Origin: a virus
Lineage: Duplodnaviria > Heunggongvirae > Uroviricota > Caudoviricetes
Direction: 5' to 3' (one strand)
Length of the DNA: 5,329 nt
IMG/VR virus record: IMGVR_UViG_2529292735_000011
The position numbers and the translations under genes are program-made. Below the pieces are notes generated by a model that saw nothing but the letters and a program-made list of their open reading frames with translations, was not told the origin of the DNA and made no database searches. Of this stretch, positions 1 to 5,329 are shown piece after piece (the stretch's first letter is position 1; every line of letters begins with the position of its first letter).

Positions 1-116
1 TGAGCGGCAATATCACGCACAGCGGCGGCAATTTCACCTCAAACGGCATTACCGTGCATACGCATAAACACGGTGGCGTGAAAGGTGGCAGCGATTCGAC
101 AGGAGGCCCGCGGTGA
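1..116 (+). CDS. V: Baseplate central spike protein gpV, C-terminal fragment (5' end lies outside the window)
   Basis: Frame starting at nt 3 reads ...SGNITHSGGNFTSNGITVHTHKHGGVKGGSDSTGGPR and stops at TGA 114-116. This matches my recollection of the P2 gpV C-terminus, and it directly precedes a gpW-like ORF in P2 gene order. The stop overlaps the next start (GTGA). Confidence 0.75.
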   Translation, partial: SGNITHSGGNFTSNGITVHTHKHGGVKGGSDSTGGPR

Positions 117-463
117 CAACCCGCTACACAGGAATGAACCCGGACGGAACGGGAAACCTGAACGATATGGAGCACCTGAAACAGTCAGTCAGGGACATCC
201 TGACCACCCCGCTGGCAAGCCGGGTTATGCGACGGGAATATGGCAGCCTTGTGCCTGATTTGATTGACGAACCCATGAATAACACCACGCGTCTGCAATG
301 CATGAGTGCTGCCGTGATTGCACTGGCACGATGGGAACCCCGCATTGCCCTGGATGCCATCGACGTTGTCTGGAAAGCGGGAGGCCGCGCCGGGGTGACG
401 CTGTCGGGCACTGTCATGCAGACCATGCAGAATGTTGAATTAACCATCACGCTGAGGGAGTAA
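113..463 (+). CDS. W: Baseplate wedge protein gpW (T4 gp25-like)
   Basis: 116-aa ORF with a GTG start at 113, preceded by AGGAGG at 101-106 at good spacing. Size and sequence (TTRYTGMN...SRVMRREYGSL...) resemble P2 gpW. Position between V and J fits P2 synteny. Confidence 0.85.
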   Translation: MTTRYTGMNPDGTGNLNDMEHLKQSVRDILTTPLASRVMRREYGSLVPDLIDEPMNNTTRLQCMSAAVIALARWEPRIALDAIDVVWKAGGRAGVTLSGTVMQTMQNVELTITLRE

Positions 464-466
464 ATC

Positions 467-1362
467 ATGCCCGCCGTTGACCTTTCACAGTTACCGGAAC
501 CCGCCATCATCGCGGAGCCTGACTTTGAGGCAATTCTGGCTGACACAAAGGCCATGATGATTGCGTCCTATCCTGCCGAACAGCGTGAAGCCGTTTCCGC
601 CGCGCTGGAGCTGGAATCGGAACCCCTGAACGTTATCGCTCAACCATGTCGTTTCGTGAAATGCTGTTACGCCAGCGGGTTAACGAGGGCGCACGCGCCT
701 GCATGTTAAGCCACAGCGCCGGGACAGACCTGGACAACCTCGCGGGAAATATGAACACAAAGCGCCTGGTTATCACTCCGGCAACGGATACCACCGACGC
801 GGTGATGGAGAGCGACACCTCGCTGAGACTGCGGGCGCAGCGGGCGTATGACGGCCTGAGTGTTGCTGGCCCGTCAGGTGCATACGAGTATTTTGCCCGC
901 AGCGCCAGCGGTCTGGTGCGTGATGCGCGGGCTATCAGTCCGTCTCCGGCAAATGTGACGGTTTCCATCCTGTCCACTGAGGGCGACGGCACAGCAACGG
1001 AGGCGTTGCTTAATACCGTTCGCGCCGTTCTGAATGCAGAGGACACCCGCCCGGTGGCCGACCGCCTGACCGTACAGAGCGCCAGAATCGTGACATGGCG
1101 GCTGAATGCAAAACTGTACTTTTACCCCGGCCCGGAATCCGAACCTATTCTGGCCGCGGCAGAATCGTCATTCAGGAAGTGGCTGGCTGAACAGGGGCTT
1201 ATCGGTCAGGACGTGGCGTTGTCCGCCATTGCTGCCGCACTGCATGTGCACGGTGTGCAACGCGTGGAGATAATCGAACCCACACAGAATATGGCCATCA
1301 GCGACATACAGGCAGCGCGCTGTGAGTCATTCACCATCAGTGAAGGTGGGCGCAATGAGTAA
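467..1362 (+). pseudogene. J: Baseplate protein gpJ (T4 gp6-like), interrupted by a -1 frameshift near 641-646 (pseudogene or sequencing indel)
   Basis: ATG at 467 follows the W stop by 3 nt. The N-terminal part, 467..~643, reads MPAVDLSQLPEP...ESEPLNVIAQ and then runs to a stop at 707-709. The homology continues in the -1 frame as (T)MSFREMLLRQRVNEGARA... in the ORF 646..1362. Joined across the shift the product is about the length of P2 gpJ and is collinear with it. The stop at 1360-1362 overlaps the I start (ATGAGTAA). Confidence 0.75.
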
Positions 1363-1886
1363 TTCACTGTTACCACCATCAGCCAGCAATTTCATGCGTT
1401 GTGCCGAAGCCGTCGGAACACGCATTACAGACATTCCGGTCGACCTCAACACGCTGTGGTCGCCGGACACCTGCCCGGTGCACCTGCTGCCTTATCTCGC
1501 CTGGGCGTTTTCCGTTGACCGCTGGGATCGCAACTGGCCGGAAGAGACAAAGCGACAGGTGATTCGTGATGCATGGCTGATACACCGACACAAAGGGACC
1601 ATCAGCGCACTGCGCAGGGCCATTGAGCCGCTGGGATACCTCATTCGCGTGTCTGAGTGGTGGGAGTTCGGCGGAGAACCGGGAACATTTACCGTTGAAG
1701 TCGGCACGCTGGACAGTGGCGTGACGGAGGAAATGTATCTGGAAATGGAGCGGTTGATTGCTGATGCCCGCCCGGTCAGCCGCCACACTGACAGGGCTGA
1801 ATATCATTCAGGAGATCCCGGGGGATATTTTCGCGGCGGCAGCAACTTACGACGGTGAAGTCATTACCATTTATCCGGACGATTAA
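1355..1886 (+). pseudogene. I: Baseplate protein gpI, probable +1 frameshift near 1784-1790 (contiguous ORF reads 1355..1858; homologous C-terminus continues in another frame to 1886)
   Basis: ATG at 1355 overlaps the J stop. The translation MSNSLLPPSASNF...LLPYLAWAFSVDRWD...HKGTISALRRAIEPLGYLI...EMERLIADARPVSRH matches gpI. After ...SRH the annotated frame gives an unrelated tail and stops at 1856-1858. The frame shifted by one reads LTGLNIIQEIPGDIFAAAATYDGEVITIYPDD and stops at 1884-1886, 2 nt before the H start; this resembles my recollection of the P2 gpI C-terminus. Confidence 0.6.
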
Positions 1887-2432
1887 GCATGAGTACCACA
1901 ACACGAAAATTTAAAACCATTATCACTGATACTGGTGCCAAAAAATTAGCTCAGGCTGCCGCGCCAGATGGTAATCCTGTCCGCCTGACTCATATGGCCG
2001 TGGGCGACGGTGGCGGCACGTTGCCCACACCAGACAGTAAGCAGACCCGTCTGGTGCATGAGGTGTGGCGACATACTGTTAATCGCGTCATCCTGGACGC
2101 AACACATCAGAACCGCATTATTGCGGAGCTGGTTATTCCTCCTGAAACGGGCGGATTCTGGATCCGGGAAATTGGTGTATTTGATGAGCACGGCGATTTG
2201 ATCGCGGTGGGCAATACTGCCGAAAGTTACAAACCAACCGTTGCCGAAGGATCCGGACGTGCACAAACATTTCGCACCATTCTGACCGTATCCAGCACTG
2301 CCACCGTGGCGCTTACCGTGGATAACACCATGGTGATGGCCACAGTGGATTACGTGGATGACAAACTGAAAGAGCATGAACAGTCACGACGTCACCCGGA
2401 CGCCTCGCTGACCGCAAAAGGCTTTTGTTCAA

Positions 2433-2910
2433 CTCAGTAGCGCCACTAACAGCGTGTCTGAAACGCAGGCTGCAACGCCGAAAGCAGTAAAGGCCGCGTA
2501 TGATCTTGCTAACGGGAAATATACTGCGCAGGATGCCACCACAGCGCGAAAAGGCCTTGTCCAGCTCAGTAGCGCCACCAACAGCGATTCTGAAACGCTG
2601 GCGGCAACACCAATGGCGGTAAAGGCAGCATATGACCTTGCTAACGGGAAATATACTGCGCAGGATGCCACCACAGCGCGGAAAGGCCTTGTCCAGCTCA
2701 GTAGCGCCACCAACAGCACGTCTGAAGCACTGGCCGCAACACCGAAAGCGGTAAAGACAGCATATGACCTTGCTAACGGGAAATATACCGCTCAGGACGC
2801 TACGACAGCACAAAAAGGGATTGTCCAGCTAAGCAGCGCGACTAACAGCACATCTGAAACGCTTGCCGCGACACCGAAAGCAGTGAAAGCAGCTAATGAC
2901 AATGCGAATG
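2433..2910 (+). repeat. In-frame 132-bp tandem repeat inside H (about 3.5 copies, 44-aa unit [44 protein letters not shown])
   Basis: Unit starts at 2433, 2565, 2697 and 2829, all exactly 132 nt apart. The first three copies are near-identical at nucleotide level; the fourth diverges after about 60-80 nt. The repeat also generates the spurious antisense ORFs 2313..2813 and 2429..2719. Confidence 0.9.
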
Positions 2911-3668
2911 GTCGGGTACCTTCTGCCCGTAAGGTGAATGGTAAGGCGCTTTCAGCGGATATTACACTGACGCCGAAAGATATTGGTACGCTTAACTCAA
3001 CAACTATGTCATTCAGCGGTGGTGCTGGTTGGTTCAAATTAGCAACGGTAACCATGCCGCAGGCGAGTTCTGTTGTTTCAATTACGTTGATTGGTGGCGC
3101 GGGATTTAACGTGGAGTCACCTCAACAGGCAGGTATATCTGAACTTGTTCTTCGTGCGGGAAATGGAAATCCAAAAGGTCTTACTGGTGCGTTATGGCGA
3201 CGGACATCGGTTGGATTTACTAATTTTGCATGGGTGAATACATCCGGTGATACCTATGATGTTTATGTTGAAATAGGTAATTACGCCACAGGTGTTAATA
3301 TTCAATGGGATTATACCAGTAACGCCAGCGTAACGATTCATACTTCACCAGCATATTCTGCTAATAAGCCGGAAGGATTAACGGACGGTTCTGTTTATTC
3401 GCTGTATATTTCGCCTCATGAACTTTATCCGGTTGGCGCACCGATCCCTTGGCCATCAGATACCGTTCCGTCTGGTTATGCCCTGATGCAGGGGCAGACT
3501 TTTGACAAATCTGCATACCCGAAACTTGCAGTCGCTTATCCGTCAGGCGTGATCCCTGATATGCGTGGCTGGACTATCAAGGGCAAACCTGCCAGTGGTC
3601 GTGCCGTATTGTCTCAGGAACAGGACGGCATTAAATCGCACACCCACAGCGCCAGCGCATCCAGTACT

Positions 3669-3758
3669 GATTTGGGGACGAAAACCACATCGTCGTTTGA
3701 TTACGGTACTAAAACGACCAGTTCATTTGATTACGGCACAAAAACCACAAATAGCGCA
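3669..3758 (+). repeat. Three tandem 30-nt / 10-aa units in the H distal region ([10 protein letters not shown] / [10 protein letters not shown] / [10 protein letters not shown])
   Basis: Read directly from the translation and nucleotides. The copies differ at synonymous positions, so this is an older protein-level repeat rather than a recent duplication. Confidence 0.55.
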
Positions 3759-4036
3759 GGAGCTCATTCACACAATATACCTGTTGGTCACACTGGCGCG
3801 GGGAATGGTGTATCAGCCGGTTATAACGCTGCGTTAGGTACTGGTACCACGTCGAGCGCAGGAGGGCATGCTCACAATGTATATATCGGTGCCCATAACC
3901 ACACTATCGGCATTGGTGCTCATGCCCATTCTGTCATTATTGGTCCCCACGGACACACCATCACCGTTAATGCTACGGGGAACGCAGAAAACACCGTAAA
4001 AAACATCGCATTTAACTATATTGTGAGGCTTGCATA

Positions 4037-4615
4037 ATGACATTCAGAATGAGTGAACAATCACGGACCATAAAAATTTATAATCTACTGACCGGAACCA
4101 ATGAGTTTATTGGTGAAGGTGATGCACACATTCCACCTCATACAGGTCTGCCTGCAAACAGTACCGATATTGCCCCGCCAGATATTCCGGCTGGCTTCGT
4201 GGCCGTTTTCAACAGTGATGAGGCATCGTGGCATCTCGTTGAAGACCATCGGGGTAAAACGGTTTATGACGTGGCATCAGGGGACTCGTTATTTATTTCT
4301 GAACTCGGTCCATTACCGGAAAATGTTACCTGGTTGTCGCCGTATGGAGAGTATCAAAAGTGGAACGGCACATCCTGGGTGAAAGATGCAGAAGCAGAAA
4401 AACTGTTTCGGATAAGGGAGGCGGAAGAAACAAAAAACAGCCTGATGCAGGTAGCCAGCGAGCATATTGCGCCACTTCAGGATGCCGTAGATTTGGATAT
4501 TGCAACGGAGGAAGAGGCATCGTTACTGGCTGCATGGAAGACATACCGGGTATTGTTGAATCGTGTTAATACAGCGGTAGCAGCGGAAGTTGAGTGGCCA
4601 GTCGCCCCACAATAA
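4037..4615 (+). CDS. tfa: Tail fibre assembly chaperone (lambda Tfa-like, with a P2 gpG-like C-terminal end)
   Basis: 192-aa ORF whose ATG overlaps the H stop (TAATG), with GTGAGG upstream. The sequence [54 protein letters not shown]... is very close to my recollection of lambda Tfa. The C-terminal ...[26 protein letters not shown] resembles the conserved end of P2 gpG. It sits immediately downstream of the fibre gene, as cognate chaperones do. Confidence 0.85.
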
Positions 4616-4621
4616 AGAGAA

Positions 4622-4651
4622 AAAGCCATCGATTGAAATATAGATGGCTTT
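4622..4651. terminator. Bidirectional rho-independent terminator between the convergent tfa and acetyltransferase genes
   Basis: Perfect 9-bp inverted repeat AAAGCCATC (4622-4630) / GATGGCTTT (4643-4651) around a 12-nt loop, with a GC core GCCATC/GATGGC. On the minus strand the stem is followed by TTTTTCTCTTTATT; on the plus strand by TTTATGT. It lies in the 43-bp gap between the two stop codons (4615 and 4659). Confidence 0.6.
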
Positions 4652-4658
4652 ATGTACT

Positions 4659-5231
4659 CTATTTATACAATACAACACCGCTCTTTTTAGTTATATATGT
4701 GCAGTTCGATGGTATATCTTTATTTATAAAAGACATTGCACCTATTTTTACATTATCCCCAATTTTACGTGATAATCCAATGATGCAACAATTAGCTCCG
4801 ATATCAACGTTACTACCAATTTTTACTCTTGAACCAGGCATGTCACCATCTATCTGCCCAATGGTAGTATTCTGCCGTAACACCAGATTTTCACCAGCAT
4901 CAACAGCAAAATGAACAACAATTCCAGCATGATGGGGAATTGTTAACCCTTTTCCAATATTTGCGCCCAATCCAATTTCACAACCAAATTTGTTAATTAT
5001 TTTATTGTTTAACTTTTTGGCTGCTGTCTTATGTAATTTATTACCATTAATATACATTTCGTTAGCCAACCGCCACCAGAAAAGGAAATTCCGGTTACGC
5101 TGTTTTTTCTCTCTTAAAAGCCTCCAGATATCCATACGTTTCCGCCGAATTACTTCATATTTCCAGAAGTTTTTTAAATTAGTAGAGTTCCCAAATAAAA
5201 CAAAGTGAATTGCCATTAAGTAAGACAGCAC
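4659..5231 (-). CDS. Hexapeptide-repeat (left-handed beta-helix) O-acetyltransferase, WcaB / serine acetyltransferase (CysE) family-like; AT-rich cargo gene
   Basis: Minus-strand ORF with stop TAG at 4659-4661. The six-frame track extends it to 5264, but the best start is the GTG at 5231-5229, which lies 6 nt after a strong SD AAGGAG (5243-5238). An ATG at 5216 is an alternative. The core ...GCEIGLGANIGKGLTIPHHAGIVVHFAVDAGENLVLRQNTTIGQ...VKIGSNVDIGANCCIIG...IGDNVKIGAMSFINKDIP has the [LIV]-G-x-x-x-x hexapeptide periodicity and the I-x-H-H-x-G-I-V-V motif of the CysE/WcaB/NodL transferase family. It is visibly AT-rich with A/T-rich codons, unlike the upstream phage genes. Confidence 0.75.
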   Translation of the reverse strand: MLSYLMAIHFVLFGNSTNLKNFWKYEVIRRKRMDIWRLLREKKQRNRNFLFWWRLANEMYINGNKLHKTAAKKLNNKIINKFGCEIGLGANIGKGLTIPHHAGIVVHFAVDAGENLVLRQNTTIGQIDGDMPGSRVKIGSNVDIGANCCIIGLSRKIGDNVKIGAMSFINKDIPSNCTYITKKSGVVLYK

Positions 5232-5282
5232 GATAATCTCCTTAATTATTATTTCAGACCACACATGTTATAAGGTTAAGAG

Positions 5283-5311
5283 ATTATAAAATCCTGTTGT
5301 TTGTTATTCAA
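5283..5311 (-). promoter_or_regulatory. Candidate sigma70 promoter for the acetyltransferase gene
   Basis: On the minus strand: TTGAAT (plus-strand 5311-5306), a 17-nt spacer, then consensus TATAAT (5288-5283), about 50 nt upstream of the GTG at 5231. AT-rich DNA produces such hexamers by chance, so this is sequence-only support. Confidence 0.45.
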
Positions 5312-5329
5312 AAACAATTTTCTGAGAAG

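Follow-up and report, generated by a model that had tools for sequence, protein, structure and literature searches.

In phage P2, the gene fun(Z) follows directly after G and is convergent with it, and it is a non-essential lysogenic-conversion gene; according to the P2 record, its cloned form blocks the growth of T5. The interval between G and FI has been called 'moron position 2' of P2-like phages (Wiles et al. 2013, PMC3573123). NeaT is encoded by a lone, AT-rich (~30% GC) acyltransferase gene that follows G in a P2-like prophage; it runs against the direction of the neighbouring tail genes, and the region upstream of it drives its expression; its authors read it as an envelope-modifying moron and showed effects on virulence and aggregation experimentally (PMC3573123). 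Prophage CUS-3 encodes NeuO, a soluble, acetyl-CoA-dependent O-acetyltransferase of the left-handed beta-helix (LbH) class that acetylates the polysialic acid polysaccharide on the surface of the E. coli host cell (PMC3046976).

Here, we analysed a window of 5,329 nt (the whole stretch of DNA considered) from a P2-like E. coli prophage in which a gene encoding a 190-aa LbH acetyltransferase follows G. The acetyltransferase gene resembles that of NeaT in being a lone AT-rich acyltransferase gene after G, and in its orientation opposite to the flanking tail genes. However, the two are not homologous: NeaT belongs to the membrane acyltransferase-3 proteins (PF01757), and a soluble hexapeptide/LbH enzyme is predicted here; the acyltransferase-3 domain was not among the Pfam matches of the 190-aa protein. 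NeaT is also rare in E. coli, whereas the gene studied here was found in 525 of 5,426 complete E. coli genomes (~10%) and is common in O26, O111, and O157 pathotypes. With Fun(Z) (528 aa), the gene shares its place directly after G and its convergent orientation, and no similarity between the two proteins was detected (best BLASTP E = 14). NeuO corresponds to the proposed product in kind, as a prophage-encoded soluble O-acetyltransferase, but represents another LbH branch: with the NeuD-family model TIGR03570, the acetyltransferase here scores 29.9 bits vs a cut-off of 160.8.

Gene structure and composition

The base composition changes abruptly after the stop codon of G, as had been noted from the sequence, with a GC content of 53.2% over positions 1-4615 vs 33.5% over 4616-5329. 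In 200-nt windows, the GC fraction ranged from 0.42 to 0.64 up to position 4600 and from 0.315 to 0.38 from 4601 on, and the acetyltransferase gene itself has a GC content of 34.7% (GC3 30.9%). The sole long ORF past G is convergent with it and spans 4659-5264 on the minus strand (201 aa), whereas the RefSeq form has 190 aa and starts with GTG at 5231. We dropped the start at 5264 in favour of GTG 5231 because the latter is the annotated start and is preceded by an AAGGAG site, which is kept in the L004 and L005 lineages. Consequently, the statement that the window ends 65 bp upstream of the gene applies to the 201-aa ORF, and the distance for the 190-aa start is 98 nt. Two plus-strand antisense ORFs (4594-4914 and 4990-5208) were taken as spurious, since the minus-strand frame has strong homology and a low dN/dS. 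Coordinates are collected in Table 1.

Table 1 Features of the acetyltransferase locus (positions refer to the window)
Feature	Position	Strand	Basis or remark
G (tail-fibre assembly chaperone, tfa)	4037-4615	+	Pfam Caudo_TAP, E = 5.8e-39; matching genomes label it tail fiber assembly protein
190-aa LbH (hexapeptide) acetyltransferase, CysE/WcaB-like, PHROG 2154	4659-5231	-	RefSeq CDS limits
Putative Shine-Dalgarno site AAGGAG	5238-5243	-	6 nt before GTG; read from sequence
Candidate sigma-70-like promoter: TTGAAT (5311-5306), 17-nt spacer, TATAAT (5288-5283)	5283-5311	-	10/12 consensus matches
Putative terminator hairpin between both convergent stop codons	4623-4651	-	9 bp; U-tract after it
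Mobile block: H C-terminal fibre tip + G/tfa + acetyltransferase	2981-5223	.	blastn

The promoter, ribosome-binding site, and terminator that the original prediction attributed to the gene were all present as putative signals. On motif score alone, the candidate promoter is no better than chance, as promoter-like sites in the AT-rich insert are not rarer than expected at random (5 seen vs 3.9 expected). However, the site is identical base for base in L005, a lineage integrating at serS, where the coding sequence is ~78% identical. The terminator hairpin has a predicted folding energy of -14.9 kcal/mol (z -4.86; none of 200 shuffled sequences was as stable) and is followed on the minus strand by UUUUUCUCUUU (4622-4612). 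A consensus terminator scan that accepts loops of 3-8 nt did not detect it, probably because its larger loop region lies outside this range. The sole Rfam match falls inside G, and none marks a structured RNA in the insert. Phase variation of NeuO depends on 5' heptanucleotide repeats, whereas Tandem Repeats Finder reported no tandem repeat in 4616-5329 and hence no phase-variable repeats here.

Position in the prophage

The gene had been assigned to the P2 G/FI (Z/fun) position. Its convergence with G agrees with this assignment, and in the P2 reference layout fun(Z), likewise after G and convergent, occupies the equivalent place. The far neighbour, by contrast, is FI in P2 and U here, because the FI-FII-E-T-U tail block of the host prophage lineage is inverted, a layout that recurs in hundreds of genomes; the acetyltransferase gene thus sits between G and U. 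In canonical P2-like phages, homologues with 64-65% identity occupy precisely the G-FI interval. The first gene past 5329 is U, which lies upstream of the acetyltransferase start at a distance of 157 nt, so the partner genes suspected there are absent. We also considered that the prophage might be rearranged or defective, given the inverted FI-U block and a D gene annotated as short. This reading was rejected because the inversion is common to several lineages, some with a full 381-aa D; in L001, the D ORF is unbroken and has 411 aa.

The moron layout proposed for the locus was borne out: the AT-rich gene (34.7% vs 53.2% GC) runs convergently in a P2-like prophage, has a putative promoter and terminator of its own, and is absent from the syntenic relatives L101 and L102. 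The slot is variable, and related prophages have there either an invertible fibre cassette that includes a recombinase or a tfa remnant alone. It is located between prophage tail genes and is not a host CysE or WcaB gene. On the other hand, the idea that the slot after G is a hotspot for defence genes found no documentation. Rousset et al. examined the tin/old locus as their hotspot, the P2/P4 hotspot papers do not mention an acetyltransferase, and a PADLOC search with the protein returned no family at E ≤ 1.

Enzyme family and active site

The protein belongs to the left-handed beta-helix (hexapeptide) acyltransferase superfamily, and profile and structure searches agree on this class, in line with the CysE/WcaB-like hexapeptide acetyltransferase originally predicted. 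It matches PHROG 2154 with E = 9.5e-87, and a Pfam scan gave Hexapep families only, namely Hexapep (E = 3.8e-5; 23.6 bits, slightly below the gathering score of 27) and Hexapep_2 (E = 0.0033); most homologues have a precomputed match to PF00132. Among PDB entries, 31 LbH enzymes matched at E ≤ 1e-3, the best being CysE 6wye (E = 7e-14), and the top Foldseek matches were all LbH serine acetyltransferases. The AlphaFold model is weak over the beta-helix (pLDDT 50-65), too weak for active-site analysis, while the N-terminal segment is modelled as helices with a pLDDT of ~90. We noticed no long hydrophobic stretch in the 190-aa translation, which is modelled as short N-terminal helices followed by the beta-helix region.

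The protein shares with CysE, WcaB, and EpsC the fold class, the catalytic His, an acidic dyad partner, and helices before the beta-helix. H100 corresponds in the alignment to the His of the 'DH' motif in CysE, and at least 90% of 40 homologues retain it; catalytic and structural residues are conserved across these homologues. The acidic position of the CysE dyad, which we take to be Asp143 in CysE numbering, is Glu in the acetyltransferase, so acidity is kept. The basic N-terminal segment FLFWWRLANEMY, first regarded as unusual for the family, turned out to be a conserved hallmark of it, with W52, W53, R54, and A56 nearly invariant. Overall, the N-terminal ~80 residues form family-specific helices that differ from the CysE N-domain.

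These similarities raise the question of whether the gene encodes a genuine serine O-acetyltransferase, acting as an auxiliary metabolic gene that would raise the synthesis of O-acetylserine and cysteine. The closest solved structures by both sequence and fold are all CysE, the characterised proteins nearest to it in sequence are true serine acetyltransferases, and RefSeq and several phage records use this name. However, no curated family cut-off was reached by the protein, the misses for CysE, WcaB, and EpsC being two- to ten-fold. The best NCBIfam matches (EpsC, CysE, and WcaB) all fell below cut-off, with 62.6 bits vs 210.65 for cysE TIGR01172, 39.7 vs 397 for PRK11132, 53.2-54.3 vs 194.65-196 for the WcaB models, and 74.1 vs 150 for EpsC. 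Alignments to CysE structures begin only at query residues 54-68 and the match spans residues 54-180; Pfam reported no SATase N-terminal domain. Serine-binding residues of CysE are not conserved either, as 'ltiPHh' replaces 'lmlDHa' (Asp157 to Pro) and 'gsR-v' replaces 'gdRHp' (His193 absent or replaced). Moreover, the neighbours of homologues are tail fibres and LPS genes, and genes of the cysteine regulon were never seen among them. We therefore rejected a genuine CysE on the basis of the cut-offs, the absent N-domain, and the absent serine-binding residues, and consider this metabolic role highly improbable. Membership in the WcaB, EpsC, NeuD, and LacA/Maa families was likewise ruled out by the cut-offs. 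We found no paper in which any member of this acetyltransferase family was tested biochemically, and the report on phage JL22 calls the presence of the acetyltransferase unexplained (PMC9603915).

Linkage to tail-fibre modules and selection

The fibre tip encoded by the 3' part of H, G, and the acetyltransferase gene form a block that recurs in other phages. It matches Escherichia phage JL22 in one blastn match of ungapped scale (2,243 nt, 92.6% identity) and Ro157c2YLVW likewise in one match (1,798 nt, 93.6% identity), and both matches stop 8 nt before the acetyltransferase start codon. In these two P1-like phage-plasmids, the block is part of the cin-invertible C segment. Among 80 IMG/VR loci, 68 have a convergent tfa ~20-100 nt from the acetyltransferase stop codon. 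This tail-to-tail arrangement is found in independent backgrounds, including G/acetyltransferase/U, the canonical P2 order G/acetyltransferase/FI, and the P1-like C segment, and also in phiNP, Hafnia yong2, 613R2, and L178; in L005, the acetyltransferase is still accompanied by an 87-aa remnant of an old tfa. Two acetyltransferase clades that are only 38% identical occupy the same slot, next to fibre tips and chaperones that are 76% identical. CUS-3, by comparison, is P22-like, and linkage of its NeuO gene to a fibre module of the Tfa type is not known.

Strict co-variation of acetyltransferase alleles with fibre-tip alleles was not found. L100 combines a fibre tip of 76% identity with an acetyltransferase of 38% identity, and in L174 and L186, which share their flanks, the alleles show 64% and 47% identity to the window gene. 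In addition, many homologues have no nearby fibre gene, such as those on the EPEC EAF plasmid after bfp/per, in single-gene islands of Pantoea, Erwinia, and Proteus, and at a prophage end beside copA. The adjacency to tfa could in part reflect a permissive insertion site at an operon end, together with hitch-hiking in fibre-module exchange.

Another reading would make the gene a functionless hitch-hiker, AT-rich foreign DNA at a permissive operon end copied through recombination of tail-fibre modules. The variable slot, with its invertible fibre cassette or tfa remnant in relatives, would fit such a view, as would three single-base indels that shift the reading frames of J, I, and H in the window's prophage. 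Nevertheless, the gene is under purifying selection: dN/dS was 0.06-0.21 between P2-like, P1-like, and serS-lineage alleles, and no indels occurred in 190 codons across divergences up to dS >1.5. The residue conservation across the 40 homologues and the independent recruitment of distinct clades to the same position also argue against a functionless passenger, which we regard as scarcely credible.

Genomic context of homologues

Several homologues have neighbourhoods that point to LPS. In the waa locus of Leminorella, a homologue with ~48-49% identity follows RfaP, WaaB, RfaI, and RfaY and is itself followed by RfaL on the opposite strand, and these neighbours all scored above NCBIfam cut-offs. 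The Halopseudomonas homologue adjoins HldE, MsbA, and a weakly Kdo-kinase-like gene. Phage-borne homologues are paired with a GT25 'LPS biosynthesis' gene (Xenorhabdus), a GT9 heptosyltransferase-family gene (Morganella), and YibB/HtrL. A contig-wide search returned mostly distant LbH proteins among the matches listed; the neighbourhoods of the 14 closest loci among them were read by ORF and family search, and no phage genes were detected near them by tblastn with proteins of P2 and P1. In phage phiNP, a homologue with 44-45% identity adjoins tfa, and the phiNP fibre shares 77% identity across 202 aa with the tip of H in the window. The receptor of phiNP has been shown experimentally to be GlcII of the LPS outer core (PMC6456863).

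The original prediction named O-antigen or capsule as possible targets, which is plausible in kind, but the context points rather to the LPS core. In this alternative, the enzyme would be a surface-glycan O-acetyltransferase acting on the O-antigen unit, colanic acid, capsule, or ECA instead of the core, mainly to the benefit of the host through immune evasion, aggregation, or serotype change, as for NeuO (PMC3046976) and NeaT (PMC3573123). EpsC and WcaB are among the best family-level similarities, and O26, O111, and O157 pathotypes commonly carry the gene. A Pseudomonas homologue, judged from N-terminal sequences, is presumably located beside WbpB/D/E-like O-antigen genes, and a Halopseudomonas homologue close to PseI would fit as well. 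Against such targets, the GT25, GT9, and YibB/HtrL partners in phages include none of Wzx/Wzy or capsule type, the clearest chromosomal context is the waa core locus, the polysaccharide-acetyltransferase models remained far below cut-off, and the tight linkage to Tfa fibres would be left unexplained. We consider this alternative unlikely. To our knowledge, E. coli core types have not been described as O-acetylated.

Less probable still, the protein might act inside the cell as an effector on something other than a glycan, such as a small molecule, an antibiotic, a metabolite, or a component of an incoming phage, which would make it an exclusion or defence factor or a xenobiotic acetyltransferase. 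The LbH superfamily includes xenobiotic acetyltransferases, the gene occupies a variable cargo position of P2-like phages, and cargo neighbours in related elements include hicAB, Abi, an hxs system, and a methyltransferase. However, the weak matches to the maltose/galactoside acetyltransferase branch span the generic beta-helix only, neither PADLOC nor the hotspot papers gave any lead, and the waa-locus context and glycosyltransferase partners would have no explanation.

Proposed function

The reading we prefer, to which we give roughly an even chance, is that the gene encodes a lysogenic-conversion LPS O-acetyltransferase, carried as a prophage moron, that modifies the receptor of Tfa-dependent fibres. 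The moron would be self-contained, with its own putative promoter, ribosome-binding site, and terminator, and its product is predicted to be a soluble, cytoplasmic, acetyl-CoA-dependent O-acetyltransferase of the LbH superfamily. The likeliest target would be the LPS outer core, with an O-unit or another lipid-linked glycan less likely. Acetylation might then alter the surface structure bound by Tfa-dependent tail fibres of the matching type, so that the lysogen would have a changed surface chemistry and be masked against superinfecting phages whose fibres are the same or similar. We infer the substrate, expression of the gene in the lysogenic state, and an influence on how phages adsorb.

The same logic is known from temperate phages whose enzymes, namely Oac of Sf6, Oac of phiV10, and GtrC of BTP1, acetylate the receptor glycan, leading to seroconversion and a block of superinfection. 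Oac and GtrC, however, are integral-membrane acyltransferase-3 proteins that act at the periplasmic face on O-antigen, whereas the enzyme here is a predicted cytoplasmic LbH protein with associations of the LPS-core type.

The acetyltransferase gene spreads together with fibre tip and chaperone by recombination among P2-like, P1-like, and other myoviruses. A more tentative step, which we hold to be possible although the balance leans against it, is that fibre tip, Tfa chaperone, and LPS-core O-acetyltransferase constitute one exchangeable 'bind-and-mask' cassette. A myovirus swapping its receptor specificity would then gain the receptor-editing enzyme in the same recombination event.

Implications

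The annotation of the acetyltransferase as a cysteine-biosynthesis enzyme is almost certainly wrong. Its gene is present in about one tenth of sequenced E. coli strains, including O26, O111, and O157, and moves between P2-like prophages and P1-like phage-plasmids. If the LPS core is acetylated, this would represent a new prophage-mediated mechanism of phage resistance with a bearing on phage-therapy host range and LPS-based typing, an enzyme class would be named for LPS-core O-acetylation, and receptor binding and receptor masking would be heritable as one module. If the cassette reading is true, the first cytoplasmic LPS-core O-acetyltransferases to be identified would be those of PHROG 2154 and its relatives in waa loci, which would also provide candidates for the O-acetylation of the Pseudomonas core, which has had no assigned enzyme so far (PMC8005017).

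Tail module and anatomy of the acetyltransferase gene

The window contains the tail module of a P2-like prophage, whose features are listed in the table. Its GC content drops from 53.2% before the G stop to 33.5% directly after it, and the DNA 3' of this stop holds a single substantial ORF, convergent with G and annotated in its 190-aa form by RefSeq in near-identical genomes. The ribosome-binding site ahead of the GTG backs the same start. The original prediction of an abrupt compositional change followed by a convergent acetyltransferase gene with its own Shine-Dalgarno sequence and terminator was thus confirmed. The putative promoter was also recovered as a site. Promoter-like sites are about as frequent in this AT-rich DNA as expected (5 found, 3.9 expected), so that the match alone is not above chance, yet the 5' region, both hexamers and the ribosome-binding site included, is nearly base-for-base identical in another prophage lineage, although the coding sequences match at only ~78%.

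Features of the window
Feature	Position (nt)	Strand	Remarks
W	113-463		
J	467-1362		split by indel into 467-709 and 646-1362
I	1322-1858		end altered by indel
H	1889-4037		P2-type fibre N-terminus, fibre repeats, collar domain; split by indel into 1889-2440 and 2454-4037
Indels	641, 1788, 2423		one A lost from an A-run in J; extra C in I; extra T in a T-run in H
Tandem repeat in H	2416-2900		132-bp unit, 3.7 copies, 84% matches; encodes Phage_fiber_2 repeats
G (tfa)	4037-4615		Caudo_TAP tail-fibre chaperone
Rfam IS009 (RF02111)	4380-4578	+	full-length match, 192 bits (gathering score 117)
Hairpin	4623-4651		9 bp; U-run next on minus strand; -14.9 kcal/mol, z -4.9
Acetyltransferase	4659-5231	-	190 aa
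Ribosome-binding site	6 nt before GTG at 5231		AAGGAG
Promoter-like site	5311-5283		TTGAAT-17-TATAAT
Block shared with JL22	2981-5223		
Block shared with Ro157c2YLVW	3426-5223		

The best identity of the whole window to any complete genome is 97.1% (strain A1), and the three single-base indels relative to that genome mean either that the prophage is decaying, with its acetyltransferase gene still intact, or that homopolymer-type errors arose in sequencing. The copy number of the repeat in H varies among relatives, and part of this region is missing from the O26:H11 11368 prophage. The IS009 match lies wholly inside the 3' part of the G ORF; this candidate sRNA family may be just a model of conserved tfa coding sequence from cryptic prophages.

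Position of the gene in P2-like prophages

In O26:H11 11368 and strain A1, the prophage adjoins ihfA and reads ...V, W, J, I, H, G, followed on the opposite strand by the acetyltransferase gene, U, T, E, FII and FI, and then by D, cargo, ogr and hok. Since P2 has G, fun(Z) on the opposite strand and then FI...D and ogr, the FI-U block of this lineage is inverted relative to P2, leaving the acetyltransferase gene flanked by G and U and starting 157 nt after the latter. The inversion is not damage, as the arrangement of G, acetyltransferase and U recurs in 495 genomes, a serS-integrating lineage has the same layout with a full-length D, and the 11368 prophage has an intact 411-aa D ORF. The proposed G/FI (Z/fun) cargo position therefore holds in part: the gene is G-adjacent and convergent, and homologues sharing 64-65% identity with the window protein fill the true slot between G and FI in canonical P2-like phages, but its neighbour here is U. 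No partner gene, of the kind suspected beyond 5329, lies between it and U.

Comparison of the interval after G across related prophages, as originally suggested, revealed a variable slot in otherwise syntenic prophages. In one of them the slot is filled by another acetyltransferase, of just 38% identity, in one by an invertible fibre cassette of the Mu/P1 style, recombinase included, and in one by no more than a tfa remnant. In strain 1447 (L101 3511-5978) the G-U slot contains another tfa and a recombinase together with part of an alternative fibre tip, a cassette indicating that this P2-like lineage is able to switch fibres by inversion. A second variable cargo site of this lineage lies between D and ogr, with the His-Xaa-Ser system hxsDBCA in O26:H11 (L001 28000-31397) and a DUF2971 gene in strain A1 (L004 28362-29147), while the tin/old position encodes ParM and a partition protein. 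For this lineage RefSeq gives D a length of 264-266 aa and has a 'partial hypothetical' pseudogene covering the 5' end of the gene. As the DNA (L001 26600-27835) is an uninterrupted 411-aa ORF, this is probably a start-site mis-annotation and not a truncation.

Linkage to the tail-fibre chaperone gene

The tail-fibre chaperone gene is the constant feature of acetyltransferase contexts. Among 80 IMG/VR loci, which are highly redundant (43 near-identical), a convergent tfa was seen at 68, its nearest end ~20-100 nt away from the stop of the acetyltransferase gene. Of the other 12, four end within ~270 nt of this stop, too near to reveal tfa, and five more belong to a class with fibre and chaperone just upstream in the same direction (three read in detail). 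Even so, sequence-distinct contexts number at least nine by our count, and the acetyltransferases in them range from 36% to 100% identity. The tail-to-tail arrangement was also found in Citrobacter phage phiNP, Hafnia phage yong2 and Escherichia phage 613R2.

The P1-like phages JL22 and Ro157c2YLVW share with the window a contiguous block (92.6-93.6% identical) of fibre tip, tfa and acetyltransferase gene, which stops 8 nt short of the acetyltransferase start and lies inside their cin-invertible C segment. In the serS lineage, the acetyltransferase gene retains an 87-aa remnant of a former tfa. From the resident G towards the acetyltransferase gene, there is first a gene for a 222-aa class-I methyltransferase, a second cargo gene of the slot, and then this remnant (L005 8617-9605). 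Allele pairing is loose: fibre tips and chaperones 76% identical accompany acetyltransferases only 38% identical, and identical flanks with different acetyltransferase alleles were also seen.

Protein family and selection

The HMM and structure searches proposed earlier were run, and the protein is a CysE-like left-handed beta-helix acetyltransferase outside the CysE, WcaB, EpsC and NeuD families. Pfam hexapeptide repeats scored slightly below threshold. NCBIfam ranked EpsC, CysE and WcaB highest, at 74, 63 and 53 bits, far under their cut-offs of 150, 211 and 195; these families were rejected, and NeuD was likewise ruled out. The protein falls in PHROG 2154 (E=9.5e-87), which has no assigned function. 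Among solved structures, only CysE serine acetyltransferases came out as nearest, both in sequence (6wye, E=7e-14) and in fold (Foldseek), and the match is confined to residues 54-180. A genuine serine acetyltransferase is nevertheless improbable, given the missed CysE cut-off, the replacement of the 'DH' aspartate by proline and the missing 'RH' histidine; the catalytic histidine is retained. An alignment of 40 homologues conserved this residue (H100), the QN, G and N helix-turn positions and the N-terminal motif FLFWWRLANEMY. The AlphaFold model has five confident helices in the first ~80 residues (pLDDT about 90) and a poor beta-helix (50-65). The basic N-terminus, originally considered unusual, is thus a family hallmark.

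The gene is functional and common. Of 5426 complete E. coli genomes, 525 carry it together with the end of G; the copy in O26:H11 11368 is 99.9% identical. All alleles compared (window, 11368, A1, the two P1-like phages and the serS-integrating prophage) have exactly 190 codons, and dN/dS is 0.06-0.21 even at dS >1.5, which makes a functionless hitch-hiker very improbable. A non-glycan intracellular target or a defence role is quite unlikely; PADLOC gave no match for the acetyltransferase.

Proposed substrate and function

Homologues lie beside lipopolysaccharide (LPS) genes. In Leminorella grimontii, a homologue about 48-49% identical sits within the waa core locus, in the order RfaP, LPS 1,6-galactosyltransferase, LPS 3-alpha-galactosyltransferase, RfaY, acetyltransferase and, on the opposite strand, RfaL, all neighbours scoring above curated cut-offs. 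A Halopseudomonas homologue adjoins HldE, MsbA and a gene weakly resembling a Kdo kinase. In Halopseudomonas oceani, two genes for CysE-like beta-helix acetyltransferases lie ~850 bp apart (L014 10004-10543 and 11389-12042), flanked by the HldE-MsbA core genes on one side and a gene for pseudaminic-acid synthase on the other. Both are candidate enzymes for O-acetylating the LPS core or O-antigen of pseudomonads, a step to which no enzyme is reported to have been assigned. Other phages combine the acetyltransferase with LPS-type partners, again alongside fibre genes: GT25 'LPS biosynthesis' in a Xenorhabdus prophage (123 bits), a GT9 heptosyltransferase family member in a Morganella prophage (32.6 bits, gathering score 22) and YibB/HtrL in an IMG/VR phage (above the NCBIfam cut-off). 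The phiNP homologue is 44-45% identical, and the phiNP fibre is 77% identical to the window H tip over 202 aa; by experiment, the phiNP receptor is the LPS outer-core GlcII (PMC6456863). A hicA-hicB toxin-antitoxin pair directly precedes the acetyltransferase gene, in the same orientation, in phiNP (L106 643-1835) and a Morganella prophage (L192 4068-5436). The gap after hicB is only 24 nt in phiNP, so the three genes may share one transcript there.

We give about an even chance to a lysogenic-conversion enzyme that would O-acetylate LPS, most likely its outer core, and so alter the receptor for Tfa-type fibres, its gene travelling with the fibre module; the substrate and phenotype steps rest on genomic context. 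Against this stand the lack of strict co-variation between acetyltransferase and fibre alleles, and the occurrence of homologues away from fibres, some on the EPEC EAF plasmid, others within single-gene islands. In addition, we know of no report of O-acetylation in E. coli cores, which counts against the LPS-core target. Another glycan as target, with the benefit on the host side, is unlikely. The plasmid homologue (L097-L099, about 7001-7594; 50% identical; plasmid type judged from gene content) lies downstream of bfp-like type IV pilus and per-like regulator genes, among IS66 and IS21 elements and fragments of T3SS effectors, with no phage genes nearby.

As for known systems, neaT in the P2-like prophage of CFT073 offers a close precedent for this layout: a moron, rich in AT and convergent, that follows G and encodes an acyltransferase, albeit a membrane protein of the acyltransferase-3 family, which is unrelated to the present one (PMC3573123). 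NeuO of CUS-3 is a prophage-borne beta-helix O-acetyltransferase, but from another branch (PMC3046976). The JL22 paper states the reason for the acetyltransferase's presence as unknown (PMC9603915), the phiNP paper merely lists the homologue as a 'fitness' gene, and we found no functional study of the family in the literature. Given these precedents, the gene is classed as a phage surface-modification moron, a kind already known; a fibre-linked LPS-core O-acetyltransferase cassette is a further, newer reading that we put forward tentatively.
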